DNA from: a virus
DNA: 59,492 nt
Virus record (IMG/VR): IMGVR_UViG_3300044940_000188
Span: 1 to 59,492 of that record
Direction: 5' to 3' (one strand)
How positions within the stretch are numbered: the stretch's first letter is position 1; each line of letters begins with the position of its first letter. The position numbers and the translations under genes were made by a program. The notes under the pieces are model-generated. The model did no database searches. It was not told the DNA's origin and saw nothing but the letters and a program-made list of their open reading frames with translations. Below, one piece after another: positions 3,122-59,492 of the stretch.

Positions 3122-3131
3122 CAGACGTGCT

Positions 3132-4768: not shown

Positions 4769-6384
4769 GTCTTGCCATCAATGATGTTGATGAGCGTTCG
4801 CTTGCCATTGGCGTAGATGACGGCGTGCGTGTTAAGCCAGCTGCTTGGTCCCTGCGTGTAGGACAGCTTCAGATATGTGCTCGTGCCTACTCTGTAGTGC
4901 CCGCCCTCGATGGCAGGGCTGTGACTGTGACCGGAAATTACGCGGACGCCAATTTTGGACAGGTTGTTCACCGAGCCCCTTGCGCCATCCGGGCCGCGAT
5001 GCCCGTGGAAGCCGCATTCTATACCTCCAATGAGGCAAGACTCGTCTGGCTTCAGGCAATGGATATCGTCACCCTCTCTCAGCTGCGACTCCAGCCACAA
5101 GGCGAACGGGTCTGGGTAGCTGGCTCCGCCCTCGGCTACTTTTGCCCGCTCGGCAAGGGCGGTGGCTGTCTTCAGGTAGAAGATGGCGTTGGTGGGGTCT
5201 TTCCGCCAGTCCGAGTCCACCAGCCACCGACGGAAGAAGTCGTCATGGTTGGAAGCGACGACGTAAGCCCTGCGCCCCGCCGACTTTTCGCGGATGAAAC
5301 GCACTGCCTCCGCCACCTCTCGGGCAAAATCAGCGCTTCCATTTTTGTGCCTGGCGACTGCTGCAAACGGATCATGGCGTTCGTGTGGGTTGACCGCAAA
5401 GCCGTCCAGCACATCGTGCCAGACGAGAGCTTGAGGGTTCAACCTGTCGACGATCCCGCCGGGACCGAACGTAGCCTTGACTACCTTTGGATCAATGAAT
5501 CTGACATGTGTGTCACCCATCACCAGTCCTAAGGCCGGAGGAGCAGGGCGGGCCGTGCCGTCTGGCAAATACTCAGTATCCAGGTCGATGAACGAGCCAT
5601 CGTCCATGGCGTTGATTTGCCGAAGGTGAAATCGTGGACCATCTAACTCGACGACGCAGGCCCCGAACACATGGTGAAACTCACCCTTCTTGCCCGCCTT
5701 GCTGTCAGTGTAGTTCTGGACAGTCACCGCACCAGTCGTGGTCATGATCTTAGGCAGGGCACCGTGAGGCGTTGCAATTGTCCGCAAAGCTATCTTTGAA
5801 TGGCCGAGGATGCCTGATTCGCCGTGGGTAATGCCTTCGAACCCGGATAGCGGATGCTGAGCAGTGGGGACGGTCTTGATGTCCCCAAGCAGGATAAGGT
5901 GCTTGCTCAGGCGTTTTCGCTGATTGTGCAGGTACGGCGTGATGGCTGGATCCCACACTTCAGCGTTTTGCTGCGATTCGCTCCACCGGGAAGTAGGGTT
6001 TTTATAACGAGTCGGTATGACTACGAGGTCGGCACCCCAAACCGAACAGTAACCCTTCAGTGCTTCTAGGAACCCCGCATGGACTGGAGTGGCGTTCTGA
6101 GCCGACGTCACTACGAGCCGGCGGCTGGTCAGGTTTCGTTTGAACTGTGGCCGACCGACGCGCTTGTTTGTCCCATTCTGCTTCGCCACGTACCCATCTT
6201 TTGGTGTAGTCGTGCTGTAGCAGTATAAGTCTTCGCCGCCACTTTTTGTCCTACACCCCCACCTCACTCGACCAGAAGGAGTACGGGCTAGGCGGATCAT
6301 TTTGCGCCCACAACGTGGGCACGAGGGGCGGTCGCTATCTGAGGAAGACTGCTTCGCGCGCGAAGACTGCTGCTTGTCGGTCAT
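4759..6384 (-). CDS. Calcineurin-like metallophosphoesterase with an N-terminal zinc ribbon
   Basis: CPRCGRKM...WGCRT at the N-terminus. Phosphoesterase motifs GDTHV, SNHDD, GFHGHRG and SGHSHSP. GGAG lies 9 nt upstream of ATG 6384. Confidence 0.75.
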   Translation of the reverse strand: MTDKQQSSRAKQSSSDSDRPSCPRCGRKMIRLARTPSGRVRWGCRTKSGGEDLYCYSTTTPKDGYVAKQNGTNKRVGRPQFKRNLTSRRLVVTSAQNATPVHAGFLEALKGYCSVWGADLVVIPTRYKNPTSRWSESQQNAEVWDPAITPYLHNQRKRLSKHLILLGDIKTVPTAQHPLSGFEGITHGESGILGHSKIALRTIATPHGALPKIMTTTGAVTVQNYTDSKAGKKGEFHHVFGACVVELDGPRFHLRQINAMDDGSFIDLDTEYLPDGTARPAPPALGLVMGDTHVRFIDPKVVKATFGPGGIVDRLNPQALVWHDVLDGFAVNPHERHDPFAAVARHKNGSADFAREVAEAVRFIREKSAGRRAYVVASNHDDFFRRWLVDSDWRKDPTNAIFYLKTATALAERAKVAEGGASYPDPFALWLESQLREGDDIHCLKPDESCLIGGIECGFHGHRGPDGARGSVNNLSKIGVRVISGHSHSPAIEGGHYRVGTSTYLKLSYTQGPSSWLNTHAVIYANGKRTLINIIDGKTWT

Positions 6385-12300: not shown

Positions 12301-15300
12301 CCTTACGTTCGACGGTCTTCGCACCGGTAGGCATCTGCCCAGAAAACCCGTAACGGTTAGTTCCGCCAGTCTGTTCATCCCGCCGGAACCTCGCCTGCCG
12401 GGCTCGACCGACGTTCTGATTGGTCTGATACATGACCTGAGCACGTTGAATAATCTTGCGTTTCAGACCCGGCGTAGTGGCGCGGTCATACAGCTGTTTG
12501 ACCACATCCTTGTCACCAGTGATGATCTGGCTGACGGAGACGTCAAATTGAATACCCTCATCAGCAAGAGCGCTAGTCAGCTCATGGCTGAGCAGCATTT
12601 CACCGGCCGCAGTGGCGCCCTCCTCGATCTCCTGCTCGGTCAGCTTGTTGGCCCGTTTGACCTCATCCAGAGACTCCAGCCGCATTACGCCAAGCTCATT
12701 AAGCCGCTCGATAGGCTCATCTTGAGTCTCTTCGACAGCAGCTACTGCTTTGAGATAGTCCTTGACGAGCTTCTGCTGAGTATTCCTGAGCGACTCGAGC
12801 TGGGCCTCTAGCTCAGCCGCCTCATTGGACTTCTTTTTCCTACCTTTGAAGGCGGCCAGCTTCTTCTTGACTTCTTCGATCTTGTCGTTGTTCCTGAGAA
12901 CCTTGTTGCCGGCGTTGGCTACCCGTGCAGCGGCGTCCTCTGGGGCACGAGCTCGGCGCGGTAGACCGGCGATGTAGTTGACCGCCTGGGCAAACAGTTC
13001 GTCTAAACGGAAGATAGCCTCGTCCTGCGCCAGCTCCTTCTCCGACGGAAGGGCATTACGCATAACCACACCCGGACGAGTGGCCAACGTCACAAGCCGA
13101 ACAAGCTCGTCTTCCGGTACGAGGTCGACAGTGTCGAACACGCTACGGCTAATATCCTCGCCGACAGGTATATCCAGCTGCCGCGTTTTTGCTTCAGCAG
13201 CCGCCTCCGGCGACAGTTTGGACGCTACCTCAATCGGCCGTGAATCCACTTTCTGCGAGGCACCACCGAGCTTGCGGGTCTTACTAAGTGTGTCCAGAAC
13301 ATCGTCAAGACGCTCAAGCTCGATGGCATAACGGATGCGGTCGCCGACAGTAGCGAACTCCTCAATGTCATCGAACTCATAGATGTTCAGCAAACGGGGC
13401 TTGGCGCCCTTGCGTGGTGTCACAGTCGAAGCGAAATTGACAAACCCACGAAGCTCCTCGAACGCCTTGGCGTACAGGTCGGCATACCGGGCATCACGGA
13501 AGGTAAGATCCTCCGGCGCGAAAAAGCCGCCAATACGACGACTGGCTGCGGCACGCTGAGCCTTGGCGCTGCGAGAAAGTAAGCGGGAGGCAGCGCGGCC
13601 GGGAGTCTTGGACTTGAGGACCTCCTGCTCCTCCTCCGGCGTGATCACCCCCTCCTCAACGAGTTTGTCAGTCTGCTCAAGGAACTCATCACGGGCCTTA
13701 GTCTCGGCACGCTTCTTGGCGCGCTGCTTGCGCTCCTGCTCGATCAGTCGGGCACGACGGCGGAGAGCCTGCTGAGCGGAGATGATGACTGCTCGCTCAC
13801 CGATTTGTTCAGCGAGAGCATCGGCCTCTGCGTACGTACCAACAAGCGTTTCACGGACGACAGCCCCGGTCGGTGTGCGCTCCTGCACGACATACCTGCC
13901 AGCAAGAGGCTTCCCTGCTCCAGCACGTGTGAGAAGACCAAGGATCTCCTGCATGTCCTGACCCTGAGCCTTCAGTTCGAGGGCCATGTCAGCAGTGGGG
14001 CGGTCGCGTACAATTAGCAGACCGCCCTTATCGTCGAAGTTACCAAGCTGCACGCCGCGACCACGAATGACTTCGGAAACACGGTCGCGGTTGAGTCGGG
14101 CAATGTTGTCCCTGGACAGGTACACCCCGAGACGGTCGCTGGTTTCATCCTCCATGTCATCGAGCTGGGCCTCAATGTCAAGGAGCGGCTCGGCCGTAGG
14201 TTCGTCAGGCTGCTTCACCTCCGGAACCGGCTCAGCCTGCTTGCGTAGTTCTGCAGTCGGCACGATGGAGAACTCCACCGTGTTGAACTCGGAGTCCATG
14301 ATGTACCGGGCAAGCGCGGCCTGCGCCGAGTCGGAGTCCGGGTGCGGCTCATTCACCACCACGTTGCCGTCCTCGTCGCGCCCGATAAGCCGGTAGACGT
14401 CGGCGGTAGACCGCTGACGCCGCTGGACCATTACAGTATTTCCAGTTTTCTCGGCTCGACGCCGAAGAGGCTCTGCAGCCGCTTCTGCTTCGGCAAGCGT
14501 CGGGAAAGTCTTTCGTGACTTGACCTGCCGATCACGGTCGACAACGGAGACTTCATACTCGACCGGTGCCTGAGCGGTTTCATCGGGCTGAGTTACCTCT
14601 TCAACAGACTGGACAACCGGCGCCGGCTCAGGGCGCGGAAACGGAGCCTGATCAAAAATTTCGATCTGCCGCTCATCGGGCAGGACGCCGGGCGGCTGTG
14701 ACAGGTCACGCTCCGGGGGCGGCTGCGGCAGCTGGCCGCGGGCGGGCGGCAGCAAACTCATGGTACCGCCGGGGATAGGCTGGGTCAGCTCGCGCTGCTC
14801 GGTAATCGGCCTTGGCGGCGGTGGCGGTAAGTCAAGCTGGTACTGCCGGAGTCCCATCTGGCCCGGGTCAAGCCCGCCATCCTGAATGGACCGCTCGATG
14901 CCCTCCGACCCGGGGATTGGGACGTACTCGAACATGTCCACCTGCGCCTCGTTCGGCGTGGCGGGCGGACGGATCTGCGGTACCTGCTCCAGTAGCTGCT
15001 GGGTGCGGGCCTCCACGGCCTGCTGCCAGCGAGCCTGCGCGGCGGCGGCACGAGCCTTGGCGTCTTTCGGGGCCTTGGGGGAGATAGGCTTCGGCTTGCT
15101 CTTGGCCAGCTCGGCCTCAGCCTGCGCCCTAGCGGTCGCCCGCATGGCCGCCTGCTCACGCTCAGCCTGCAGCTCACCAGAGTCCTGCAACACCACCGGT
15201 CGACCGGTGGGCTTACCCGACCGGTCGTACGGTTGTGCAACACGTGTAGTGAACTGCTCACGGGCGCGCAGGGCAGCGGCAACGGCGGGGTCAACCGCGT

Positions 15301-16576
15301 CCGCGGCGGACTGCCCGGGGGTAAACAGGTCGCCTTGCGTCTGGTTTTGCCCAATGCGGACGCCGCTCGGGGTAGGACCAAACACGGACTCGAACGACTC
15401 GCCGGGAGTACCGCGGTTGACTGCGGCCTGGTCCTCAGTGGAAGCCCCCGACGGCGGAGCCTCGGACGGCACTTTCGGGCGCTGCCGGCGACCAAGCGCC
15501 ACTGAGAAGCCACCACCGATAAGGCCGCCCAGCACGCCGCCCTCAACAGTGGCCTCAAGAACACCCTCGCTCGCTCCGCGGGTCTTGTCATACGTCTGAG
15601 CAGCGATGTTCTGAACGTATTGCTCAACGGCCGACTGCGAAACTTCCTGCGGCGCCTCTGCAATGGCGCCCCGGCCTAGCCGCTGAAGTACAGTACCAGT
15701 CGCACCTTCTCCCACGATAGGTGTCCAGAGACGCCCAGCTGCGGAGGAGATAGCTCCTACAATCAGGCCGGCAAGCAGCGGGCGAACACCCTGAGCCTCG
15801 GCCGCAAGAGCCTCACGCGCCTCAGACTCAGTCATTGTCTTGCGCAACTCGGCGTAGCGAGGAGACTGCATGAGCTCCTCTTCGCGGGCAGACGCTACCT
15901 CCTCATTAATCTGATTGGCGAGGGCGCCCATCGAAATGGTCGCTTCGGACGCTCCAAGGTAGCTAATAGCCGCGGGCGAGGCACCCAAACGGAACATGAT
16001 GATGGACGGCAGCAGAGTGGCTAGCGACGATGGGACGGCTTGCACCAACTTCGTACCAACAGAAGCAGCTGTCTCCAACGGATCGTCGAACTGGAAAATC
16101 GACTTGGTCGGATCAAGCGTAGTCCACTCACGTGAAACGCGTTCGACAACCTCCGGGCGGAGAGTCTTGTACATCTCCTCACGGATGTTACCGAGGTACT
16201 GACGGACAGCACGAAACGGGGTGTCGAGGCCCATCTCCGGAACAATGCCCGGTAAAGCCTCACGAGCTTTGCGCTCCCCCTGTCCTACCAGATACTCGCC
16301 AGCACCGGCCAACGCCTCGCCGACACCAACAAGTTCTGCCCCGAACAGAGTGGAAAGGCCACTCTCGCCCTTGGGCGGGCGCGGCTTGATGCCGCCACCA
16401 AGCTCCCAGAGAGGCGGCAGGGCACGGTCGACCGGAGAAGCGCCGGCACTGTACTGCTCGACAAGGGCATCCGCCTCACCTTGAATGTCGGGCAGAGGCG
16501 GGAGGTCGAGCGGGTCAAGAGCTCGAAGTGGACCGAAATTCTTCTCGTACTGCCGGCGAATGCTTGACATGGTCAC
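6335..16576 (-). CDS. Giant (3413 aa) polyvalent-type virion protein with a zincin HExxH domain and a PLxRFG-like motif
   Basis: Uninterrupted 10.2-kb ORF. ILHELTHAATH is at 9848-9862, with downstream DEFLAEAW. YFPLMRYGDF is at 8666-8683. The N-terminus has Gly-rich hydrophobic segments, Pro-rich linkers follow, and the C-terminus has hydrophobic segments. Confidence 0.85.
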   Translation of the reverse strand: MTMSSIRRQYEKNFGPLRALDPLDLPPLPDIQGEADALVEQYSAGASPVDRALPPLWELGGGIKPRPPKGESGLSTLFGAELVGVGEALAGAGEYLVGQGERKAREALPGIVPEMGLDTPFRAVRQYLGNIREEMYKTLRPEVVERVSREWTTLDPTKSIFQFDDPLETAASVGTKLVQAVPSSLATLLPSIIMFRLGASPAAISYLGASEATISMGALANQINEEVASAREEELMQSPRYAELRKTMTESEAREALAAEAQGVRPLLAGLIVGAISSAAGRLWTPIVGEGATGTVLQRLGRGAIAEAPQEVSQSAVEQYVQNIAAQTYDKTRGASEGVLEATVEGGVLGGLIGGGFSVALGRRQRPKVPSEAPPSGASTEDQAAVNRGTPGESFESVFGPTPSGVRIGQNQTQGDLFTPGQSAADAVDPAVAAALRAREQFTTRVAQPYDRSGKPTGRPVVLQDSGELQAEREQAAMRATARAQAEAELAKSKPKPISPKAPKDAKARAAAAQARWQQAVEARTQQLLEQVPQIRPPATPNEAQVDMFEYVPIPGSEGIERSIQDGGLDPGQMGLRQYQLDLPPPPPRPITEQRELTQPIPGGTMSLLPPARGQLPQPPPERDLSQPPGVLPDERQIEIFDQAPFPRPEPAPVVQSVEEVTQPDETAQAPVEYEVSVVDRDRQVKSRKTFPTLAEAEAAAEPLRRRAEKTGNTVMVQRRQRSTADVYRLIGRDEDGNVVVNEPHPDSDSAQAALARYIMDSEFNTVEFSIVPTAELRKQAEPVPEVKQPDEPTAEPLLDIEAQLDDMEDETSDRLGVYLSRDNIARLNRDRVSEVIRGRGVQLGNFDDKGGLLIVRDRPTADMALELKAQGQDMQEILGLLTRAGAGKPLAGRYVVQERTPTGAVVRETLVGTYAEADALAEQIGERAVIISAQQALRRRARLIEQERKQRAKKRAETKARDEFLEQTDKLVEEGVITPEEEQEVLKSKTPGRAASRLLSRSAKAQRAAASRRIGGFFAPEDLTFRDARYADLYAKAFEELRGFVNFASTVTPRKGAKPRLLNIYEFDDIEEFATVGDRIRYAIELERLDDVLDTLSKTRKLGGASQKVDSRPIEVASKLSPEAAAEAKTRQLDIPVGEDISRSVFDTVDLVPEDELVRLVTLATRPGVVMRNALPSEKELAQDEAIFRLDELFAQAVNYIAGLPRRARAPEDAAARVANAGNKVLRNNDKIEEVKKKLAAFKGRKKKSNEAAELEAQLESLRNTQQKLVKDYLKAVAAVEETQDEPIERLNELGVMRLESLDEVKRANKLTEQEIEEGATAAGEMLLSHELTSALADEGIQFDVSVSQIITGDKDVVKQLYDRATTPGLKRKIIQRAQVMYQTNQNVGRARQARFRRDEQTGGTNRYGFSGQMPTGAKTVERKAAKQRMVEGYYAPEDVEFGAPRNRRLYVEAFKKLSDAAENVRLAGNEVTPLQRVSLEAAIAEMDKAVEKAQPTPKAADIYEVTSAYSADVLLNFWRVQDETPEERKKRVARADRLRPKLATAIAKTDEMLTRYRNEVLPAETDQAKRTQLVYALAYLRSLRDYAQFAYNANNPSTPALNQIEDLIEFLNEVNGMSDEAFAADYAKVMKSSLRGSLRLITGDQAFRKFVLDRSRANRDAALHAKHVAAVRLGRELTDVGMKKSMYFRDMIMPVMQKFADSFMVDGWFSYQPTVAEMDSVQYALQRMLRDKRTPPELTQRTAKYFLQLGYTFDENGVLQYEESSEPPPEGQKPRRRFERYTKITDENLDKQARLKYETLLGVVDRVTGEEYTPEVSASPLIREGTSASIFKRIQETREIAARSAERKEQSEIARDRVLNSRVLGVLTRYSNNLAAARTTGAARLAGQKLFAALEELGVEARPGVGKEKDTTVLVRAFGYDVKVPLVEPRLTGDTSTALEDIRRLGREMEIPEITTPLPQWARPDIATTFMRTPVAAEQAIPANVQQQAELYSRVAGVIDRFLKRVSNTKTTINGMVRAEQRLVRALQALGVWHQGNTPAIGTIKIGDKSRSVRLVADALQSKKLLKQQAKEIMLSLKPPAEPSIVVAARRTASPEAREQLAAVESKARSTPVDEETDLFMRAIDPDLYSEEFAAVVDEIDAAINQLGSGMAANDALDVFMRKIPKGHPFHAIAQRLLMSNLDDVVIRYDFGRRLKKGAAAAFVRNLNGRPTVLLRFYGDTGLSARGDALKSYTILHELTHAATHGALRNKPWFALELTALREHVRQYLENKMGGLPPTEYVRYGLERTKIDGRPNPIDEFLAEAWTNLELRAVLKRVPAPPPVTPPTLGSRIQSAWDAFKALVRRVLGLPEPVKPIQTSVLDVIFSMTDELFTGEKVDMTDALEVRLPDAVLRAPAAAILEKHTSISKWTKRIRDMAVPPLGAMTMEQIRDLYADGFQGPQGNPLTAYMDAYFKRAAENSRLMERAEKIMQRWTTLQQKDPAAAIELSRVATEASLYRVSPGEAVTSPRNSHLTTPTAKQRWSELNARYLAMPSEYRQMYDDLQAYYRNALAEESTLILQNALRAVLATGAGAPLDLETFEDTFTLKKLSGITPEKLNEMIGDIATPDMKATIAQLARLPEMRQGDYFPLMRYGDFVVYASREVERKTFTDSKEAFAYAATKRGDDPTLDVGVFKVDNKFEVRVTEKEFSTAESRTEAEEIRQRMVETYGADAVSDVQRRSQFTQDAAIQSNSALASILGNLEGNKAAQAAIKNFYLRSLADSSFRKHEIRRKNRLGVDYDIQHRNFANYAKQSAYYTSQLQYGWQLGRHLRDMDEFAKRTRGTDEISAVRRGDVVNELRQRDEQMAELPDIVNIVKRGTEFAQFISLTTPAYWMTNATQPWLITLPWLAARYGWRSASAALGMAQNLIKSPLLKAVVDSKGGIAAARKLTGKVAAEQAFSVIDQIIDQIRNDSSLPDGRGEKYIAMLTELRRNNVIDLSWIAELRDIAEGQDLSPTQRILDASRIMAHLTEVNNRVLVAIAAYDLKYNEVVEAVGEVEADRQATMYAKTAVSTTQFNYGGANKPRWFQTNGPLGAGAPLVTQFMQWPQHMYAMMGMNLYKWTKGDKEAKRVFLNMLATHTLAAGVTGTMFQPIKWAAGLVLALFGDDDEPYDAASAVSGQAFDWWFQKNLAAITGSPALAEAAAKGIPAALGVDMSKRLSMGSIFMADLRPENADSFLGSAVTSFGGPWIGIGVQWGRGFQQVMEASANGDVRGFFRGLEFVVPKIVRDFLRAGRFATEGITSTRGDVLVPADDVSPFDLFVQSIGLTPTSVSRFYDKREYLISRSRLAAEHKQDIVTRILKADPSERGRLIGEAVRHNKMYPDAPISITGLLQSLRNKREREVRTQTYGANLNDRQAAVFAREAVFLR

Positions 16577-35016: not shown

Positions 35017-35523
35017 ATGGAAACTGAACTCACCAAATCAGCCCTATCCCAAGAAGTGGCTCTGCCGCAAATCGAAGCATCCGTCGGTCTAGAGCACCTC
35101 TCGGCCACAATCTGCGCTGAACTGGCCGCCGGACTGTCAGAGCCGGCGGACATCCGGGCGAAGTATAACATCAGCAAGGAGCAATGGGACACCCTGCGCC
35201 ACTCGCCAGTTTTCCGGGCTATGATACGGGAAGCGGTCGAGAAGTTCGCCGGAGACTCCAACGCCGGCCGCCGCATCACGATGAAAGCCGAAATCGCCCT
35301 AGAAGACTCAATCCCCACGATATACAGCATGGTACATAACCGGGAAGTGCCGGCCGCCTCACGGCTGGACGCTGCCAAAATTCTGGCAACCCTCGCCAAC
35401 CGCACCGGCAAGATGGCGGAAAACAATAGCAGTGGCGTAGGGTTCTCCGTAAACATCCACATAAACACCGGTGAGAAGAAGGGCGTGGTCATCAACGGTG
35501 AATCAAGTCCACCCACGGACTGA
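35017..35523 (+). CDS. Small-terminase-like or DNA-binding protein encoded on the opposite strand between portal and TerL
   Basis: The plus-frame product has a balanced K/E/D composition and an ...ASRLDAAKILATLANRTGK... segment typical of TerS-like proteins. The co-extensive minus ORF (34986-35516) has 1 Lys in 176 aa and is Ser/Ala/Arg-rich. Start is uncertain: ATG 35017, GTG 35011 or GTG 34999. Confidence 0.6.
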   Translation: METELTKSALSQEVALPQIEASVGLEHLSATICAELAAGLSEPADIRAKYNISKEQWDTLRHSPVFRAMIREAVEKFAGDSNAGRRITMKAEIALEDSIPTIYSMVHNREVPAASRLDAAKILATLANRTGKMAENNSSGVGFSVNIHINTGEKKGVVINGESSPPTD

Positions 35524-36924
35524 CGGCGGCTGCTGTGGAGGCACCGGGTTCAGCCTTGCCATAATCTTCCCCACACTATTCGAGCTAACGCTCAGCGCCA
35601 TGTACTGAAGGCAGTCGGCCAAATCCGACCACGGATGGGTTTTCTCAGGCCTGTCCTCAAGCTCCCCGGTTTTCTTGCGCCGATACCGATACCCATGTTT
35701 CAGAGCGTGAACAAGCGTCGGGCACCCAGGTCCGGAAATCATCAACGCAGGACCGCCATCAATCTGCTGCAGGAACAGCTGCTCCACTGCCCTGATCCGC
35801 GGGTCGATGTCATTGGTCACAGCCGGAAACGCGTCAAAACCGAGGCGTTTAAGGGCCTTGATCGGGGATTCCTCGCCAATCGGTCCTTTGGCGTTGCCGG
35901 CCGGATCGCACACCACGAAGATGCGGCGCCCCATGTAGTGCTGATAGATTAATGGGCGCGTTTCCGTAATAGTGAACTGCTCCAGCCCTTTGTCAGTGCT
36001 GAACAGCTCCCGCATGATCACCAACCGCCCCCGATTCGTAACCTGACCAAACAAACAGGCGGGAGTGCGACCAAAGTCGTGCCCAATCATGATCGGAATA
36101 TGGTCCTGCGGCTCTATGTACTCGTTGACCACGTGAAACTCAGGCTTGAAGCTGGCTCTCCACACAGCCTGCCCACTTAACGACTTGCCATATTTGGCAT
36201 GAACGTGAACATCAACCCAGTCAGGACTGTTGTTCGCTACAAGTAGATCGTAGTACCCGTCTGGTAGGTTCTCGACATTCTCAGCGTTTGGTTCAGTACC
36301 GCCCGGCTGACGGAAGATCGTCCAATTAGGCGGCTTGTCCTTCTCCAGCTTGTGGTACCACTCACTATCCTCGTCCGGGGGGTTCGACTCAGCAACGATA
36401 CCCTTCCACGAGCATGGGGCAATAGCTTTGGCAGGGAATCGCCCAAGACGACCAGAAAGGGCGTCAATGAGCGACGGGGAGACTTCACGAAACTCAGACA
36501 CCCACGCTCCGGTCAGGTTCAGCGACAGCAACCGCTGCTGATCTTCCTTGGTATCTAACGGAATGAGCATCCAATCCGATACCACTTTGGTACCGTCAGG
36601 CAGTGGGGTACGAATCTGGATGGTGTTCTCGGCAACCTTGAAGGTCATGATCGGCCCAAGCCACAGCTGGATGTCCGCCAAACACGTCTGACGAAGTTGC
36701 GGGAGCGTGTTGCGAATGATCGCAAACCGGGTGAGCCGTCGCCCACGGGCATCCGGCGCCTGCATCTTGGCACGACGCAGAAGCTCCATGAAACAACCAG
36801 CCGACTTACCCGAGCCAACCGGACCGATGATGAGTCGAACGAACGACTCGTCAAGCATGAATCGCCCGATGGTTGGAGGGGTAACGTAGTTGAGAACCGA
36901 CGGGTTAGGGTCGTTGGAACTCAC
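35503..36924 (-). CDS. terL: Terminase large subunit
   Basis: Walker A GPVGSGKSAG and Walker B-like GAWVSEFRE. Nuclease acidic motifs IGHDFG, VCDPAG and HPWSDLADC. Confidence 0.9.
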   Translation of the reverse strand: MSSNDPNPSVLNYVTPPTIGRFMLDESFVRLIIGPVGSGKSAGCFMELLRRAKMQAPDARGRRLTRFAIIRNTLPQLRQTCLADIQLWLGPIMTFKVAENTIQIRTPLPDGTKVVSDWMLIPLDTKEDQQRLLSLNLTGAWVSEFREVSPSLIDALSGRLGRFPAKAIAPCSWKGIVAESNPPDEDSEWYHKLEKDKPPNWTIFRQPGGTEPNAENVENLPDGYYDLLVANNSPDWVDVHVHAKYGKSLSGQAVWRASFKPEFHVVNEYIEPQDHIPIMIGHDFGRTPACLFGQVTNRGRLVIMRELFSTDKGLEQFTITETRPLIYQHYMGRRIFVVCDPAGNAKGPIGEESPIKALKRLGFDAFPAVTNDIDPRIRAVEQLFLQQIDGGPALMISGPGCPTLVHALKHGYRYRRKKTGELEDRPEKTHPWSDLADCLQYMALSVSSNSVGKIMARLNPVPPQQPPSVRGWT

Positions 36925-41985: not shown

Positions 41986-42596
41986 AGCTGGAGCCAGTGC
42001 AAGATCCTCTCCCGATGAGTCGCGCCAACCATCGCGGTACGACTTGTGAGCACGCGTGGGGGCGGGTACGGCGCCAACCGACGAAGAACCTCCTCCTGCC
42101 GATGTCGCAGCTCCCGAATCTTCCGCACGTCGAAGTCCACCATCACGTAGGTGACTTTTTCGAATTCGCCGCTGTCTAATAGGTCGTCGAGGATGTCGCA
42201 TTCCGCACCTTCGCAGTTCAGTTTCAGGAACACGGTGGCAGGAGAGACGAGATTCTCACGAAACCAAGTTGAAGCCTTGACGAAATTGCACAACACTGGC
42301 TCGTAACCACGGTCAGTCCAATTGGTCTTTTTCCACAGGCTAGCACCCTTGCTACCTGCGTCAATAAGCTCTGCCTGCGTGTCCCGATCCCACAGCCCGA
42401 AACGGTGAACGACTGTCGTGCGGGTATCAGCAATCTCCTGCAAGTGTGCCCAACAGAACGGCGCCGGCTCGAAACAGTGAATCTCGTCAAACCCCCACTC
42501 TTGGGCAACGGCGAGTGACTGCCCGATGTTGGCACCGACATCAAGGAACACTTGCGGAAGGTGCAAGTATTCAGTATGCTCCGCTCCGTTGGTCAT
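41955..42596 (-). CDS. FkbM-family SAM-dependent methyltransferase
   Basis: Motifs VFLDVGANIGQS and HCFEPAP. Confidence 0.8.
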   Translation of the reverse strand: MTNGAEHTEYLHLPQVFLDVGANIGQSLAVAQEWGFDEIHCFEPAPFCWAHLQEIADTRTTVVHRFGLWDRDTQAELIDAGSKGASLWKKTNWTDRGYEPVLCNFVKASTWFRENLVSPATVFLKLNCEGAECDILDDLLDSGEFEKVTYVMVDFDVRKIRELRHRQEEVLRRLAPYPPPRVLTSRTAMVGATHRERILHWLQLCTSQGRLPA

Positions 42597-42608
42597 GTGC
42601 TTCCTCTT

Positions 42609-42634
42609 AGGCCCCCGAAAAGGGGGCCTTTTTT
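42609..42634 (+). terminator. Canonical hairpin plus T6 oriented for the PLUS strand, inside the minus-strand operon
   Basis: AGGCCCCC gaaaa GGGGGCCT followed by TTTTTT on the plus strand. On the minus strand the hairpin is preceded by an A-run and followed by TAAGAGGAAGC with no U-tract. Confidence 0.5.
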
Positions 42635-42926
42635 ATTCCGGAGGGATGATCCGCGGGTGTGGCACGAGAGGCTCCGGCTCAGCCTCCAGAGGCTCAACCG
42701 TATCGACCGGACCCATGTCGACGAGCTTCAGTATTACAGGCGAGCAGCCGTAGACCGGCTTCTGCTCGGCCGCACGACTAAGCACAGCCCGCTGGGCATC
42801 GACACGCCGCCGGGCCGCTACCGCGATGACCACCGGTACGTGCACGACTGCGTGATAAATGTGCACGGGCGGGAGAGAGTGGGTAGGAGAAACGGCATCG
42901 TCGTCTGAATCGTCGTCAGTACTCAC
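42633..42926 (-). CDS. Hypothetical 97-aa protein with an acidic N-terminus and one hydrophobic segment
   Basis: GTG overlaps the upstream stop (GTGA). The alternative plus ORF 42552-42908 is Arg-rich and looks spurious. Confidence 0.45.
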   Translation of the reverse strand: MSTDDDSDDDAVSPTHSLPPVHIYHAVVHVPVVIAVAARRRVDAQRAVLSRAAEQKPVYGCSPVILKLVDMGPVDTVEPLEAEPEPLVPHPRIIPPE

Positions 42927-43180
42927 TGGTCACCCCCGGTGATGTTGACCTTCATAGGACGAGACTTGAGGAGCCGCTCGCGCAATTCGTTGAGGTCACC
43001 GTAGGTGTAGACCAGCAACAGCTTAAAGCCCATGAACGCGATGGTCAGATTGAAGTTGTTGAGGACGTGCTCATGCTCGATGGTGAGTTCGACGAAGGTG
43101 AAGTCGACCCAGTTGTAACGGGACGGGAAGAACAGCGCCATCCACTGAATCTCGAGCGATGCCATGAACCGTACTGGCAT
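42923..43180 (-). CDS. Hypothetical 85-aa protein
   Basis: ATG 43180 is the first start after the RHH stop, with GGAGG 14 nt upstream. The track start 43291 overlaps the RHH gene by 86 nt. Confidence 0.5.
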   Translation of the reverse strand: MPVRFMASLEIQWMALFFPSRYNWVDFTFVELTIEHEHVLNNFNLTIAFMGFKLLLVYTYGDLNELRERLLKSRPMKVNITGGDQ

Positions 43181-43205
43181 GTAGGCAACGTCTACCTCCG
43201 TAGGC

Positions 43206-43400
43206 TCAAGATCGGGATTTGGCACGGGCGGCTTCCTTCTTGGCAGCGGAAAGAACACGCTCGATGTACTGGCGCACGGCCGCGCGGACATGTTCGCTGA
43301 CAGTCAGGCCAGTCTTGTCTGACAGCCGATGAAGCTCGGCAATGTCATCGTCGGGGACAATCACATGGATGCGGGTTCCGTTCAGGGACGGGCGTGGCAT
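43206..43400 (-). CDS. Ribbon-helix-helix (Arc/CopG-like) DNA-binding protein, first gene of the minus block
   Basis: TRIHVIVPDDDIAELHRLSDKTGLTVSEHVRAAVRQYIERV shows a beta-alpha-alpha pattern. AAGGAGG lies 7 nt upstream of the ATG. Confidence 0.7.
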   Translation of the reverse strand: MPRPSLNGTRIHVIVPDDDIAELHRLSDKTGLTVSEHVRAAVRQYIERVLSAAKKEAARAKSRS

Positions 43401-43517
43401 AGGTGTACCTCCTTGGTTGGCATAGTGTGGGCCTATTGGGGTGTGGTGTCAAGGGGTGAGTTTCGTGGGTCTGTTTGGATTTGGGGCTGACATATTTGCG
43501 AAGGCCATAAGCAGGAT

Positions 43518-43562
43518 CCCCACCCCCCACCCCCCTTGGCCCGGTACCCCCTACCCCCGCCC
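43518..43562 (-). other. Run of seven G-tracts on the minus strand (C-tracts on plus) in the divergent control region; G-quadruplex or i-motif potential
   Basis: Plus strand reads CCCC A CCCCCC A CCCCCC TTGG CCC GGTA CCCCC TA CCCCC G CCC. Confidence 0.5.
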
Positions 43563-43654
43563 ACTGACGCCCGACAGCCCGAGGCGTTCCTAAGTCACGG
43601 TATATGAAGGGCGCGCATGGTGCATGCCCGCAATCGCTGCACACGCGCAGCGAC

Positions 43655-43669
43655 TTACAAACCTTGTAA
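43655..43669. promoter_or_regulatory. Palindrome S1: TTACAAACCTTGTAA
   Basis: Exact inverted repeat. Ends 2 nt before the GGAG SD of gene 43683. Confidence 0.9.
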
Positions 43670-43682
43670 CTGGAGTACTGAC

Positions 43683-44225
43683 ATGACTAAGCAGACCAAC
43701 ACGATCACGAATCCTGCCGAACTGTCGCGTATCGCGAAAACGTTCGCGCGAGCCTACACGCTCAACGTGTCGGCGGCCGACATCCTGACGGAGTCGGCAA
43801 GCATGTTCGCGGCGCGTCTGAAGCGCGAGGAACGTGCCAGCACGAAGGAAGAAATCAACTTCATGGTCGCCGAAATCGTCGCACTCTGCGGCTTGCAGAA
43901 GCTACCGTCGCGGGCGGTGCGCGAGTCGGAAATCCGCAGCGTGTTCCGGAACGCGGCGGCTTTCACGGCCGTGATGCAGAAGATCGGCAACACGCGCATC
44001 GGCTACGCGCCGGCGATCCAGCTGGCGCGGAAGTGCGATAGCCTGCCGGTCGCCGACGTCGTGGCATGGTACAAGTCCGGTAAGCCGATCGCAGGAACCG
44101 CGACGCCGAAGGCGAAGCGCGCACGCGCCGTGAAGACGTTGACGCACCTGTGCGACGAAAAGTCGTTGCCGCGCGACTTCCGCGACGCGCTGGCGCGGCT
44201 CATGGCGAAGTACTCGCTGGCCTGA
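43683..44225 (+). CDS. First early gene, 180-aa hypothetical protein
   Basis: ATG 43683 has GGAG 7 nt upstream; the track start 43617 is rejected. Bracketed by palindromes S1 and S2. Confidence 0.65.
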   Translation: MTKQTNTITNPAELSRIAKTFARAYTLNVSAADILTESASMFAARLKREERASTKEEINFMVAEIVALCGLQKLPSRAVRESEIRSVFRNAAAFTAVMQKIGNTRIGYAPAIQLARKCDSLPVADVVAWYKSGKPIAGTATPKAKRARAVKTLTHLCDEKSLPRDFRDALARLMAKYSLA

Positions 44226-44226
44226 G

Positions 44227-44241
44227 TTACAAGGCTTGTAA
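44227..44241. promoter_or_regulatory. Palindrome S2: TTACAAGGCTTGTAA (17 bp including the G...C flanks)
   Basis: Exact inverted repeat starting 1 nt after the stop codon. Confidence 0.9.
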
Positions 44242-44256
44242 CTCACGTCCCTTCAC

Positions 44257-44285
44257 CCCCACGGCTTCACGGCCGTGGGGTTTTT
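44257..44285 (+). terminator. Intrinsic terminator
   Basis: Stem CCCCACGGC / GCCGTGGGG followed by TTTTT. Confidence 0.8.
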
Positions 44286-44310
44286 CGCTTCATGCTCTGG
44301 GAAAATCACG

Positions 44311-44547
44311 ATGACCCCGCACATTGACGGTCATGACTTGACGCCCACGGAACTGATGAACCTTGCGCTTTCATGGCTGGAAGTTTTCAACGAAACCTGC
44401 GACGAGCATGCGTGGCGCGTGGCCGCCAGCATCTACAACGATCTCGCCGAACGGCGACAGGAAGCCATTCGGCTGAACCTCGAAAGCTCCACCTACATCG
44501 GGATGGTAGCTGATGACTTGAGCCGCGAACTGATGTCGTGGACCTGA
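44311..44547 (+). CDS. Hypothetical 78-aa protein
   Basis: ATG 44311 lies downstream of the terminator. The SD is weak. Confidence 0.55.
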   Translation: MTPHIDGHDLTPTELMNLALSWLEVFNETCDEHAWRVAASIYNDLAERRQEAIRLNLESSTYIGMVADDLSRELMSWT

Positions 44548-44564
44548 GCCTACCTGACACACGT

Positions 44565-44579
44565 TTACAAGCCTTGTAA
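44565..44579. promoter_or_regulatory. Palindrome S3: TTACAAGCCTTGTAA, with flanks extending to an imperfect 29-bp palindrome
   Basis: Sequence cacacgtTTACAAGCCTTGTAAacatgtg. Confidence 0.9.
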
Positions 44580-44593
44580 ACATGTGCCTGCAA

Positions 44594-44623
44594 CCCCACG
44601 GCCTGACAGCCGTGGGGTTTTTT
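44594..44623 (+). terminator. Intrinsic terminator with the same stem as 44257-44285
   Basis: Stem CCCCACGGC / GCCGTGGGG followed by TTTTTT. Confidence 0.8.
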
Positions 44624-44780
44624 GTGTGCACATTTCGTAGGGACTCCGTTTATGCGCCCATTTTTCGCCGTATGCCGGGCTGGCGGGCTGGCGGGCCGGA
44701 GGGGGCGGAGGCAGTGAGGAGAGGCGCCGCCTCTGGCGGCGTTATCATCGGCGCAAATCATGAGCCGTGGGGCTGAAGTA

Positions 44781-45171
44781 TTTGTAGTGGTTTGCAGTCA
44801 GAGGCAGCGAGGGCGGATCACTACAAACAAACCCAGGCGGAGAGCGGTCTATAAATATATATAGTTATTATAGTATTTATAGTGATGTCTCCGCCGAGAA
44901 CCTACGTAAGGCTTTTCGGTTTCGTGGGTTTGAATTGATGGGGTGTGTGTAGAAGATTAGGGTCTTCTATTTCTAAAGCGCGCTATAAATACTATTATTC
45001 GTTTTTTCTTTAGAAACAATGACTTCTAACCCAGCTGCTGAACTGCGCTTCGAGGGTTTATAGCAGCGCGCTGCTTTTAACCCCCACAGCCCCACAAACT
45101 CTCCCTCTGCCACTTAACAACCCGATTATTTATAGTCATCGAAACAGCCCTACTATAATTACTATAAATAC
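44781..45171. repeat. AT-rich non-coding island with 5 exact CTATAAATA copies in both orientations, nested in short inverted repeats
   Basis: CTATAAATA at 44849-57 (+), 44874-82 (-), 44983-91 (+), 45127-35 (-) and 45162-70 (+). Inverted-repeat pairs: 44781-89/44819-27, 44836-43/44888-95, 44950-56/44963-69 and 44971-78/45008-15. A 14-bp palindrome lies at 45062-75. Confidence 0.85.
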
Positions 45172-45207
45172 CCAGCCTTTCTCAACAGGTGATTTCAGCA
45201 TCACTTG

Positions 45208-45222
45208 TTACAAAATTTGTAA
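45208..45222. promoter_or_regulatory. Palindrome S4: TTACAAAATTTGTAA
   Basis: Exact inverted repeat in the leader of the early operon. Confidence 0.9.
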
Positions 45223-45259
45223 ATTTCCGAGTCTCTAAACAAGTCTCGGAAATCTTTTT
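45223..45259 (+). terminator. Terminator or attenuator-like hairpin in the 5' leader of gene 45303
   Basis: Stem ATTTCCGAG / CTCGGAAAT, 13-nt loop, then CTTTTT. Confidence 0.55.
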
Positions 45260-45302
45260 CACAGTGCCTACTCCCTAAACAAACCATGAAGGAGAAATCA
45301 TC

Positions 45303-45521
45303 ATGAACCGTACCAACCTGATCGAAGTCATCGCTGGTGCCGCCGAAACGATTGCTGACACGGTGGGCCAGCACCTGTCCACCCTGCCACCCGACCACCT
45401 GTTCGCACTGGAGTCGGCGTACTACGACCTGACGGGAAACCCGCTCTTCAGTGAGGCGCAACGCCAGCAGCTGCTTGCCCGTGCCAACCGCCCCCCCGCC
45501 GCTGGCGTGGGTCGCTTCTGA
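45303..45521 (+). CDS. Hypothetical 72-aa early protein
   Basis: AAGGAG lies 8 nt upstream of the ATG. Confidence 0.6.
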   Translation: MNRTNLIEVIAGAAETIADTVGQHLSTLPPDHLFALESAYYDLTGNPLFSEAQRQQLLARANRPPAAGVGRF

Positions 45522-45536
45522 TCGTGGGGTATCAAC

Positions 45537-46121
45537 ATGTTCATCATCTATTTCCAGTTGGTCCCCCACCCCGCTGGTGAGCCGGGTGAAGTGCCGGAGC
45601 TGTTCACTGATCATCTGCTCTACCCGCTGGTCCGTCCGGTTGAGTTCGGCAAGGTCCGTGCCAACAGCCCCACAGCCCCCCGCCCGTGTCGTGCCAGTGA
45701 GCCGTCCTACTTGCAGAACGACGAGCTGAACCAGCTGAGGACAAAGATGATGGTTGACTACTCACTGCGGTCCGGGCGCTTCTACCCTAGCGACTTGACT
45801 GAACAGTACCCTGCCGGCGTGCGGGCGATACTGAGTACAGCGCCGTTCTATCTGCAGCACTCCGACATCTACGAGATCGGCCTGCTGCTTGGCTGGTTAC
45901 GGCCCACCAGTCTTGGGTACTACTGGGGCATTGGTCTTGGTAGCACGCTGGTTGACGTGTTCAGTCGGACTGATCCGCACATCGAATTCCAGTTCGAAAA
46001 CGAGGAAGACGTTCTGCGTTGTGCAGAGCTGTCAGTGAAAGGAGGTGAGCGCTACTACTTCGCCCTGCCTGAAAAACCGTCACATACCACGCTCCGTTAC
46101 GTGGCACTGTTCACGTACTGA
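45537..46121 (+). CDS. Hypothetical 194-aa early protein
   Basis: ORF with typical composition; weak SD. Confidence 0.6.
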   Translation: MFIIYFQLVPHPAGEPGEVPELFTDHLLYPLVRPVEFGKVRANSPTAPRPCRASEPSYLQNDELNQLRTKMMVDYSLRSGRFYPSDLTEQYPAGVRAILSTAPFYLQHSDIYEIGLLLGWLRPTSLGYYWGIGLGSTLVDVFSRTDPHIEFQFENEEDVLRCAELSVKGGERYYFALPEKPSHTTLRYVALFTY

Positions 46122-46150
46122 AACACACCTACACATGAGGAGACACAACC

Positions 46151-46552
46151 ATGAAAATCAACGACGCAGCAATCGGCTCTCGCTCCAGCTTCAGTCTCGT
46201 CTACGAGGACTTCGTGAACTCTGTTCTGTTCATGATCATCATCGCCGCCTGCTTGATCGCTGGGGTAGTCAACACTGACGCCGGCTGGACGGTGGCAGGG
46301 CTGGCGCTCTGGGTTGTCAGGCTGGACGATCAGATCACCCGTGCCAGACGGCGGCTGCTGGTGTACGGCGAGACGGTGTTCCTGTCTGAAGCACTGATGT
46401 ATGCGCTGAAGCTGGACCCCGACAATGGCAAGCAGTTCCTGCAGAAGCTGGTGGAGGAAGGGTACGTCCGTGAGGAGATACTGGCGGAGGTGCTTGAACG
46501 CACCGTCGAAGCCTTTGGCCTGAACAAGAAAAAGACCAACAACGAGGAGTAA
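46151..46552 (+). CDS. Early membrane protein (133 aa)
   Basis: GAGGAG SD. Hydrophobic segments VLFMIIIAACLIAGVV and WTVAGLALWVV. Confidence 0.65.
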   Translation: MKINDAAIGSRSSFSLVYEDFVNSVLFMIIIAACLIAGVVNTDAGWTVAGLALWVVRLDDQITRARRRLLVYGETVFLSEALMYALKLDPDNGKQFLQKLVEEGYVREEILAEVLERTVEAFGLNKKKTNNEE

Positions 46553-47222: not shown

Positions 47223-47237
47223 TTACAAACCTTGTAA
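47223..47237. promoter_or_regulatory. Palindrome S5: TTACAAACCTTGTAA (17-mer identical to S1)
   Basis: Exact inverted repeat, 7 nt upstream of the AAGGAG SD of the ATPase gene. Confidence 0.9.
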
Positions 47238-48321: not shown

Positions 48322-48350
48322 TCTACTAACATCTGTAAGGAGACATGACC

Positions 48351-49691
<1,341 letters not shown>

Positions 49692-52461: not shown

Positions 52462-52476
52462 TTACAAGCCTTGTAA
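52462..52476. promoter_or_regulatory. Palindrome S7: TTACAAGCCTTGTAA
   Basis: Exact inverted repeat, 6 nt after the stop codon. Confidence 0.9.
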
Positions 52477-52481
52477 CTTTC

Positions 52482-52516
52482 AGGCCCACGGTCCCCGCGG
52501 ACCGTGGGCCTTTTTT
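52482..52516 (+). terminator. Strong intrinsic terminator
   Basis: 13-bp stem AGGCCCACGGTCC / GGACCGTGGGCCT, 4-nt loop, then TTTTTT. Confidence 0.85.
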
Positions 52517-52533: not shown

Positions 52534-52562
52534 TTGACACGCCCCGTCGGCCCCGCTACATT
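52534..52562 (+). promoter_or_regulatory. Sigma70-like promoter candidate upstream of the DNA polymerase gene
   Basis: TTGACA, a 17-nt spacer, then TACATT. Located immediately after the terminator. Confidence 0.5.
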
Positions 52563-52673
52563 AGCACCCACGTTACTTGCCGACGGTGGTCGCATGGATT
52601 TCCTCATCGCTTTGCTCGTCTGCTCGTGGCCGGTCTGGCTGCCCGTTATCATCAGCTGGTGGGAGGATTCGAG

Positions 52674-58251: not shown

Positions 58252-59492
58252 GTGAGCAAGACTGTAGCCCGCAAGAATCTGGTCCCTACGGCTGAAGTGC
58301 CGGCCTACCTGCGCAACGTGATTGCGCGGACCAAGACCGAAGACTTCTCGGAGTTCACCGACGGTGTGACGTCTGGCTTTGGGATCATCAGCTACCGTGG
58401 AAAGGTGTGGCGTGTCCGCAAGGGCGGCGAGGAGCAGCAGTACCTTGACGAGAACGGCGACGCGATGCCGTCGATTGAAGTTGTGTTCATCAAGGCTAAC
58501 CGCCTGCCGTCTAAGCTGTACTACGGAGCGAAGTACGTCGAGGGCGACAACAGCCCGCCGAAGTGCTACTCCACCGACGGCGTGCGGCCAGACGTCGCTG
58601 TACTGGAACCGGTGTCCGAGTTGTGCGCCACCTGCCCGAACAACGTCTGGGGCAGCCGCATTACCGATGACGGCAAGAAGTCACGTGCTTGTCAGGACAG
58701 CCGTAGGACGGTTGTCGTCTTTTCTCACCATCTGGTTGACGCGACGCCCTACAGCCCGCCGGAAGTGTTCATGCTTCGGGTGCCGCCCGCGAGCTTGAAC
58801 CCGTTGAAAGAGTTTGTCGAGAAAATTCTCAAGCCGAAAGGTATTCCTCTGTACTCGGTCGTGGTCCGTGTCGGGTTCGACAAAGACGCGTCCTTCCCGA
58901 AGTTTACCTTCCGGGTGGTGCGGTTTGTTACCGAGGAAGAGTACGAGATCATCGAGCAGCTGCGCGCTTCTGATGAAGTGGCGCGGATCCTCACGCAGGA
59001 GGGGGCTGCCGTCGAGCAGGGCGCGGGGGGAATTACTGCAGGCAGCGAGGTAGCGTCTGGTGCACCGGCCGGGCGCCGGGCTGAAGCGACCCCTGCAGCT
59101 CCCCCCGCCTCTTCCAAGAAAGCCAAGCTGGTTCCGGTCGAGGAGGAAGTCGAGGAGGATGTCGAGGAGGATGTCGAAGAAGAGGAAAACGAGGACGACG
59201 CTTTCCCTCCACCGCCGGTGCGCGCTGCCGCCCGTGAAGCGGACGTAGAGAACGACGAAGAGGAGGCTCCACCGCCTCCTCCCAAGAAGAGGGCCAAGCC
59301 GACTCCGCCACCGGTTGTCGAGGAAGACGAAGACGACGAGGAGGAGGCTCCACCGCCTCCTCCCAAGAAGAGGGCCAAGCCGACTCCGCCACCGGTTGTC
59401 GAGGAAGACGAAGACGACGAGGAGGAGGCTCCACCGCCTCCTCCCAAGAAGAGGGCCAAGCCGACTCCGCCACCGGTTGTCGAGGAAGACGA
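58252..59492 (+). CDS. SSB-like protein with a Cys4 motif and a long acidic/Pro/Lys repeat tail. Runs off the window and finishes at 224 (445 aa in the closed circle)
   Basis: GTG 58252 has GGAG 7 nt upstream. The frame is open to the window end. Contains CYSTDG...CATCPNN...ACQD. Not in the ORF track because it has no in-window stop. Confidence 0.7.
   Translation, partial: MSKTVARKNLVPTAEVPAYLRNVIARTKTEDFSEFTDGVTSGFGIISYRGKVWRVRKGGEEQQYLDENGDAMPSIEVVFIKANRLPSKLYYGAKYVEGDNSPPKCYSTDGVRPDVAVLEPVSELCATCPNNVWGSRITDDGKKSRACQDSRRTVVVFSHHLVDATPYSPPEVFMLRVPPASLNPLKEFVEKILKPKGIPLYSVVVRVGFDKDASFPKFTFRVVRFVTEEEYEIIEQLRASDEVARILTQEGAAVEQGAGGITAGSEVASGAPAGRRAEATPAAPPASSKKAKLVPVEEEVEEDVEEDVEEEENEDDAFPPPPVRAAAREADVENDEEEAPPPPPKKRAKPTPPPVVEEDEDDEEEAPPPPPKKRAKPTPPPVVEEDEDDEEEAPPPPPKKRAKPTPPPVVEED
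59284..59492 (+). repeat. Perfect 81-bp coding tandem repeat: 2 full units (59284-59364, 59365-59445) and a 47-nt partial unit that continues at the window start
   Basis: Period 81 verified by position (59284, 59365, 59446). Confidence 0.9.

Follow-up and report, generated by a model that had tools for sequence, protein, structure and literature searches.

The window examined here is the complete 59,492-nucleotide stretch of the virus record IMGVR_UViG_3300044940_000188. It holds a tailed-phage genome of ~59.5 kb with a GC content of 58% and a circularly permuted assembly, and our subject is an AT-rich non-coding island at 44624–45302 that, on balance, may be the replication origin of this phage. 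The genes are laid out in two arms. The minus-strand arm (~3.5–42.6 kb) carries lysis and virion genes (major capsid, portal, large terminase at 35503–36924, tail fibres and internal virion proteins). The plus-strand arm extends from ~43.6 kb across the window junction to 3.1 kb and encodes small early proteins as well as a replication module composed of an AAA ATPase, a metallopeptidase/VWA protein, a family-A DNA polymerase, a PD-(D/E)XK exonuclease, a SNF2-type helicase and a 952-aa primase–helicase. A metagenomic contig (L001/L004) showed 96.7% DNA identity to this genome, and the relatives sourced from NCBI were metagenome contigs. Among GenBank phages, no DNA-level match to the island or to the 23 kb around it was detected. 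Of the cultured phages, the RHph_TM3_14A group of Rhizobium phages comes nearest (capsid 52%, ATPase 32% and primase 30% identical); Pseudomonas phage Rollin lay too far off, and neither an ATPase homologue nor an island was found in the stretch examined. A profile search of genome contigs with the ATPase returned a single distant match to a metagenome-assembled genome and no host information.

The island begins behind an intrinsic terminator on the plus strand (44592–44622) that closes a short upstream early operon. This terminator consists of an 11-bp stem with eight GC pairs followed by a T run, exhibited an RNA fold z-score of −4.1 and is 100% conserved in L001. The left part of the island (44624–44840) is GC-rich and fast-diverging, and holds a conserved box, CGTTATCATCGGCGCAAATCATG, at 44739–44762. 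The right border (45208–45262, plus strand; RNA fold z = −3.6) is formed by a palindrome of the type TTACAA-N3-TTGTAA (45208–22), followed by a hairpin with a T run (45223–62) that had been described as an attenuator in an earlier reading of the same DNA, hereafter the original prediction. Beyond it lie a ribosome-binding site (RBS) and the ATG of the gene at 45303. The original prediction had also claimed that about 680 bp lacked a credible open reading frame (ORF) and that the GC content dropped sharply, and both claims were borne out. When ORFs of 50 aa or more were counted, for each gene arm on its own strand, 44777–45302 was the sole gap in the genome larger than ~200 bp. Furthermore, the alignment of the island with that of L001 contained indels of 4, 1, 3, 1, 1 and 2 nt, and such non-triplet indels are incompatible with a coding function. 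The GC content of the island was 0.35–0.44 compared to 0.58 overall, and its 200-bp windows are the lowest of the genome. An Rfam search of the island yielded only sub-threshold chance matches, and a tRNA search yielded none.

Within the island, we found a 9-bp repeat unit (consensus CTATAAATA) whose CTATA core is invariant and whose tail consists only of A and T; it is present in ~10 copies in both orientations. Exact CTATAAATA occurs five times in 59,492 bp, three times on the plus strand (44849, 44983 and 45162) and twice on the minus strand (44874 and 45127), as had been predicted. All five copies are located within 44849–45170, with zero elsewhere in the window. With one mismatch allowed, nine matches were obtained versus 1.7 expected, a number that 0 of 100 shuffles reached, and eight of the nine fall in 44779–45170. 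The core itself (CTATA/TATAG) is found 20 times genome-wide, nine of these within 336 bp (44840–45175). The leftmost copies form a divergent degenerate pair, TATTTGTAG on the minus strand (44779–87) and CTACAAACA on the plus strand (44820–28), with a GC-rich 32-bp spacer between them; the copy at 44779 is a one-mismatch match, and the DNA fold of the pair (44779–44828) gave z = −3.4. The main array (44849–44882) is arranged head to head: CTATAAATA on the plus strand (44849–57) faces three minus-strand units that are contiguous, in 9-bp tandem (44856–64, 44865–73 and 44874–82), a feature that goes beyond the earlier description. The GC content of this array is ~15%, and on its sequence it is a candidate unwinding site. 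Further to the right lie a plus-strand copy at 44983–44991, together with a half copy CTATTATTC, and a degenerate minus-strand copy at 45056–45064, GGTTTATAG (CTATAAACC on the minus strand). The last group is a divergent array (45127–45170) in which a minus-strand CTATAAATA (45127–35) is separated by a 17-bp spacer from the pair CTATAATTA CTATAAATA on the plus strand (45153–70); that the latter two stand in tandem had likewise escaped the earlier reading. Of the near-copies reported there, CTATAATTA is real, but lies one base further on (45153–61), and GGTTTATAG at 45056–64 differs from the consensus at two positions. A scan of viral contigs for the arrangement CTATAAATA-N(1–30)-TATTTATAG produced more than 120 matches in unrelated AT-rich genomes and thus amounted to noise.

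The inverted-repeat frames that the original prediction had drawn around the repeats were both present, but only in part withstood closer analysis. A 60-bp imperfect palindrome, GGCGGAGA...TCTCCGCC (44836–44895), encloses the main array; its 22-nt arms are 77% complementary, and its DNA fold reached z = −5.6. The outer GC clamp, however, is not conserved in L001. We therefore rejected the interpretation as a cruciform and regard this palindrome as probably a by-product of the facing repeats in the sequence rather than a selected structure. The second frame, TTTCTAAAG/CTTTAGAAA (44970–45016), encloses the copy at 44983–44991. Its arms are conserved in L001 and its loop is variable, while its DNA fold was no better than that of shuffled sequences (z = −1.0).

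Comparison with the close relative L001 revealed how unevenly the island has changed. The two islands are ~78% identical overall and 58–70% identical in the GC-rich left part, compared to 96.7% genome-wide. Repeat positions were identical in 68 of 70 cases (97%), as opposed to 454 of 582 positions in the rest of the island (Fisher p = 2e-5). As judged from this alignment, the repeats are under purifying selection within a fast-diverging island. The main array (44849–44882) is the same in L001 except for two positions, the divergent array (45127–45170) is 98% identical and the copy at 45056–64 is conserved. In the degenerate pair, the right copy of L001 is an exact CTATAAATA, and the left one, TTTATAGC, still has two mismatches but possesses the TATAG core again. 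Both arms of the divergent pair thus recover the CTATA core, and they change together.

More distant relatives were compared at 18 viral and 33 metagenomic loci that were fetched with the ATPase as an anchor. The ATPases of the compared phages are only 27–60% identical, and the early genes were not conserved across relatives. Many of them nevertheless share a layout of one to three small genes, a terminator, a low-GC non-coding island and then the ATPase gene. At least nine of these more distant relatives possess a similar island in the same position, with 5–12 copies of a lineage-specific word in mixed orientation, all or nearly all of them confined to the island. For instance, L009 (word GACGTAGAG) has four plus-strand copies, a 50-bp (TA)n-rich spacer, two minus-strand copies and then three further plus-strand copies. 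L021 (word GGGGGAGTGA) has 10–12 copies in three convergent groups around AT-rich spacers (12 of 12 in the island), and L155 (word GGACATTTA) has three plus-strand copies, an AT-rich spacer and then minus-strand copies (9 of 9 in the island). L008 contains three copies of GTGGACAAN with a 9-bp period and inverted GTCCAC copies further on. The words of L005 and L011 are GGATATGATGG(T/A)AATGA and GATATGATGAGATGA (short form GATATGATGAG), respectively, that of L014 is AACTTTAGGGTTA, and L018 and L167 carry TAATCTATAA-like words. In Rhizobium phage RHph_TM3_14A, a 770-bp island with a GC content of 0.27 was found. From these sequences, the repeats resemble sites bound by a phage protein that co-evolves with them rapidly.

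These data also bear on the assumption, made in the original prediction, that the TATAAAT cores could equally be −10 elements of early promoters for the host RNA polymerase. TATAAAT indeed resembles the −10 consensus of sigma-70, an operon follows downstream of this AT-rich region, and a promoter scan called one sigma-70-like site, CTGCCA-18-TATAGT (45107–45136). This single site, however, compares with 1.3 expected from shuffles (42500–46500), and no copy of the repeat is preceded by a good −35 element. The promoter that had been proposed explicitly, GAAACA-17-TATAAA, has a spacer of 16 nt, matches TTGACA with GAAACA at 3 of 6 positions and was not called by the scan. Moreover, about half of the copies point leftward, into the terminator and away from the downstream genes, and contiguous copies in 9-bp tandem would make no sense as promoters. 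Several words of the relatives (e.g., GACGTAGAG and GGGGGAGTGA) contain G and C and cannot be −10 boxes, from which we conclude that the repeats are not host promoter elements. We consider a cluster of host promoters very improbable, and the idea of an early promoter hub found no support.

A candidate for the protein that acts on the repeats is encoded elsewhere in the plus-strand arm. The gene at 263–3121 (plus strand) specifies the 952-aa protein mentioned above, here called PrimPol-Rep, in which an AEP-type (archaeo-eukaryotic primase) PrimPol domain is fused to a DUF927 helicase and a variable C-terminal domain. We propose this protein as the trans-acting initiator. It was assigned to Pfam DUF927 and to primase/helicase families of PHROG, and phmmer matched it to PDB entry 5DGK (E = 8e-7). 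A profile built from 42 family members detected Rep of SaPIbov1, a Staphylococcus aureus pathogenicity island (SaPI), with E = 3.5e-31 over Rep residues 32–484 (PDB 8TCH), and Cch of the staphylococcal cassette chromosome mec (SCCmec) with E = 3e-20 (5DGK); the match to Rep stopped short of the Rep C-terminal domain. In agreement with this, the AlphaFold model (predicted local distance difference test, pLDDT, 86) retrieved 5DGK (1.5e-17) and 8TCH (8e-16) in Foldseek, with a template modelling (TM) score of 0.58 normalised to the target, and its N-terminal domain matched the PrimPol of cyanophage S-2L (6ZP9, 7e-7). The phage thus encodes a homologue of the SaPIbov1 Rep/Cch family (DUF927, MCM-like AAA+). 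SaPI Reps are self-loading initiator helicases whose C-terminal winged-helix domain recognises 6–12 short iterons; these flank an AT-rich centre on its two sides and are oppositely oriented (PMC9371898; PMC7581432). In the phage family, conservation is lowest over the C-terminal ~150 aa (mean pairwise identity 0.34–0.42 versus 0.72–0.79 in the ATPase core), and the model shows a helix–helix–beta-hairpin order in this region. Such a variable segment is the pattern expected for a specificity domain, for which it provides weak sequence-based evidence. More than 580 IMG/VR contigs encode a PrimPol-Rep protein. In the window, no repeat array was present downstream of rep (3100–3600) or in the divergent promoter region, so that the island is the sole candidate iteron site in non-coding DNA.

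Taken together, we favour, with modest confidence, the interpretation that the island at 44624–45302 is an iteron-type replication origin served by PrimPol-Rep. The repeats are confined to one place and far above chance, and they occupy the only sizeable non-coding gap, which is also the GC minimum of the genome. Of the two readings offered by the original prediction, it is the origin that is supported, though indirectly, by the position of the island, the selection acting on the repeats and the presence of a Rep/Cch homologue, whereas the promoters are not. We assume that the C-terminal DNA-binding domain of PrimPol-Rep would recognise the repeats. The helicase would load itself and melt the AT-rich core; following the model put forward for SaPI Rep, it would probably do so in the form of two hexamers seated on repeats of opposite orientation. 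The fused PrimPol domain would prime synthesis for the family-A DNA polymerase of the phage. More speculatively, the conserved box near 44740 could harbour a promoter, and transcription starting there may help to activate the origin.

In analogy to SaPI origins, 6–12 iterons would be expected in one non-coding region, and 44779–45170 contains eight copies with at most one mismatch in addition to two or three degenerate ones. An AT-rich centre with at least two opposed iterons on each side was clearly observed in L009, L021 and L155. The main array of the window has one plus-strand unit facing three minus-strand units and no separate spacer, because the iterons themselves constitute the AT-rich DNA (44849–44882). 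Several observations weigh against an origin of this kind. The island is not next to rep but ~15 kb upstream of it along the plus arm, its units are 9-mers as compared to SaPI iterons of 5–6 nt, and short arrays of direct and inverted repeats also serve ribbon-helix-helix regulators and terminase small subunits. About half of 21 loci scanned by a simple k-mer method were without a clear cluster; on the sequences at hand the island module is common in the clade, and universality would go beyond the evidence. Finally, the cumulative skew did show the inflection anticipated by the original prediction, but this check (GC and AT skew) was not diagnostic. The GC-skew minimum is a plateau at 42.5–46.2 kb, just where the genes change orientation (~43.5 kb), and GC skew cannot tell effects of replication from those of transcription. 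An origin immediately downstream of rep is a feature of the SaPI family, whereas here rep ends at 3121, far from the island. For this reason, we liken the island to a SaPI-type origin in the way it would work and in its homologous initiator, but do not count it as a straightforward member of that family.

An alternative explanation is that the repeats are operators for a phage regulator, for example a cooperative ribbon-helix-helix or helix-turn-helix (HTH) protein, which would control an island promoter that starts transcription anew past the terminator and drives gene 45303 and those beyond. Ribbon-helix-helix-type proteins such as omega, ParR and ParG bind contiguous tandem units of 7–10 bp, reminiscent of the tandem units found here, and a gene for a small protein of this type is located at 43206–43400. 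In addition, the island sits between the strong terminator (44592–44622) and the next operon, the conserved box CGTTATCATC... (44739) includes a −10-like TATCAT that could fire into the repeats, and the first gene past the island of L011 resembles an HTH protein by eye. Yet the promoter region of the ribbon-helix-helix gene itself contains zero repeat copies, and upstream of the box no conserved −35 was seen. L005 and L011 share the repeat core GATATGATG and, according to tblastx, no early-region protein, so that the binder is apparently not encoded next to the island. This comparison of sequences argues against a gene adjoining the island as the source of the binder. Furthermore, 8–12 copies over 300–500 bp around extremely AT-rich spacers would be an unusual operator set for a lytic phage, and a dispersed TTACA...TGTAA palindrome directly before gene starts is a better candidate for a transcription signal. 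We therefore regard a purely regulatory array as rather unlikely. Like the other rival readings, it is compatible with an origin; transcription into an origin could help to activate it. The ribbon-helix-helix-like protein (43206–43400, minus strand), encoded where the two gene arms diverge and 52% conserved in L007, is in its own right a candidate regulator of early transcription.

The dispersed palindrome was analysed in its own right. The 15-bp sequence TTACAA-N3-TTGTAA occurs in seven exact copies (0.66 expected), all in the plus-strand early/replication arm: 43655–43669, 44227–44241, 44565–44579, 45208–45222, 47223–47237, 48709–48723 and 52462–52476. Three copies are followed by strong intrinsic terminators within 4–13 nt and the 45208 copy by the weaker, terminator-like hairpin with a T run, while two copies stand directly before an RBS and ATG. 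Relatives possess their own versions with the same TTACA/TGTAA half-sites (e.g., TTACACCGGTGTAA and TTACATGCATGTAA), with 5–10 per locus and mostly 0–15 nt upstream of the RBS. By its distribution in these sequences, the palindrome is a more plausible transcription signal of the clade than are the CTATAAATA repeats; it could be a promoter for an unrecognised machinery, an operator or a nut-like RNA hairpin.

In its left part, the island holds the box CGTTATCATC(A/G)GC(A)CGTACATTGG, which is conserved among phages with proteins of only ~55% identity. It recurs at the same relative place in L001, L005 (2269), L008 (3692), L009 (3706) and L011 (3966), and in inverted form in L155 (3708). A second copy in the window (52643–52655) lies ~25 nt upstream of the likely start of the DNA polymerase gene (ATG at 52675). 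For the box TTATCATC, a comparison by eye with the consensus sequences gave no convincing match to a DnaA box, an integration host factor (IHF) site or a CtrA site, and these assignments were dropped. The DNA polymerase gene is also preceded by a strong terminator (52483–52515) and, behind it, a near-consensus sigma-70-like promoter sequence, TTGACA-17-TACATT (52534–52562).

Repeat arrays can also mark packaging sites or genome ends. The cut sites of lambda (cosB) and SPP1 (pac) are likewise surrounded by repeated sites in both orientations, and in phages of the T7 and N4 type the genome ends are found at the start of the early region. By these parallels, the island might contain sites for the small terminase subunit (pac- or cos-like), or genome ends or a terminal repeat might be hidden there by the circularised assembly, which is circularly permuted and cut inside a coding repeat. 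The island is, however, ~8 kb away from the large terminase gene and does not stand at the start of the early arm but ~1.2 kb into it, and 0 related contigs start or end at their own island. A packaging or terminal region thus appears highly improbable. The coding repeat in question has a unit of 81 bp and spans the window junction (59290–59492 and 1–170). It encodes an acidic, proline-rich peptide, EEDEDDEEEAPPPPPKKRAKPTPPPVV, and its ORF runs past both window ends; the assembly was evidently circularised or cut within it.

Among known systems, the SaPI elements (SaPIbov1/SaPI1) and the putative origins of SCCmec with Cch/Cch2 come closest to the origin proposed here. They have in common a homologous initiator (DUF927 helicase; 8TCH, 5DGK), ~6–12 short repeats, and a variable helicase C-terminal domain combined with repeat words that differ among related elements (specificity groups). 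Repeats in opposite directions on both sides of very AT-rich DNA are a further SaPI trait, seen clearly on the phage side in L009, L021 and L155. Their origins are situated immediately downstream of rep, unlike the phage island in the early region, and the phage units are 9-mers (core CTATA) in 9-bp tandem spacing. As in SaPI5 PriRep, a PrimPol domain is joined to the phage helicase, which is, however, of the SaPIbov1/Cch type. Moreover, SaPIs are satellites, whereas the genome studied here is that of a ~59-kb autonomous, lytic-type podophage with its own DNA polymerase. In phage P4, with its sites ori and crr, a single protein (gp-alpha) acts as primase, helicase and origin-binding protein on direct and inverted short repeats, and the origin is kilobases away from the initiator gene. 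The multifunctional primase–helicase, the short repeats in both orientations and the distance between origin and gene are thus shared with the phage, but P4 alpha belongs to a different primase/helicase family, and no crr-like second cis site was seen. The primary origin of T7 comprises the promoters phi1.1A/B and an AT-rich region. Both phages share, in the early/middle region, a non-coding and AT-rich stretch that transcription may enter; T7, in contrast, lacks iterons and relies on an RNA polymerase of its own, while no phage RNA polymerase was detected here. Iteron plasmids (RepA/pi/TrfA) and lambda O offer a further parallel, as repeated initiator sites adjoin an AT-rich unwinding element. 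Their iterons, however, are 17–22 bp long and mostly direct, and dedicated winged-helix initiators recruit the host DnaB, whereas the predicted phage initiator is itself a helicase.

Several additional features of the genome and of its relatives emerged from the analysis. A 3,413-aa polyvalent virion protein is encoded at 6335–16576 (minus strand). Only LPD39 (residues 2415–2571) and a DarB-like C-terminus were recognisable in it, and residues 1000–2199 had zero homologues in a large protein database. Its relatives comprise 3,492–3,644 aa, one of them with a Glyco_hydro_108 domain. The large ORF, together with the N4-type ATPase, had raised the speculative possibility of an N4-like virion RNA polymerase with hairpin promoters; PHROGs, Pfam and PDB sequence searches gave no RNA polymerase signal. 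In the replication arm, a hexanucleotide tandem repeat, (GAGCCT)n, occupies 48447–48510 in the 5′ part of ORF 48345–49691. Since homologues of this ORF align from residue 142 on only, just past the palindrome at 48709, the true start of the conserved protein may lie further downstream. In Rhizobium phage records (L002/L003 = MN988472.1; H56–H59), the PrimPol-Rep homologue is labelled 'putative integrase protein', and an 'attL' feature is placed inside the ATPase gene; both labels are probably mis-annotations.

A bolder interpretation would extend to a whole clade of ~60-kb podophages, which is large and has hardly been cultured. In these phages, a SaPI-Rep-type helicase would be uncoupled from an origin in the early region, work together with the TTACA...TGTAA palindromes and fire in a transcription-coupled manner; we consider this scenario improbable. 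In the same clade-wide picture, the palindromes, which can form hairpins and stand ahead of most early and middle genes, could serve an unrecognised transcription machinery of the phage as promoters or loading sites. Such a machinery might be located, for instance, in the unannotated 2,400 N-terminal residues of the 3,413-aa protein, a suggestion that is based on analogy with N4.

If the island is the origin, it would provide a defined pair of origin and initiator for a widespread, almost unstudied phage group, which has no cultured relatives other than a small number of Rhizobium phages and the more distant Pseudomonas phage Rollin. The island would then be cis-essential and should be kept intact when such genomes are engineered or rebooted. 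The relatives would represent a natural series of origins with differing repeat words and matching initiator C-terminal domains, useful for studying the evolution of origin specificity. Moreover, the paradigm of the self-loading Rep helicase of SaPI and SCCmec would extend from satellites to autonomous lytic phages.

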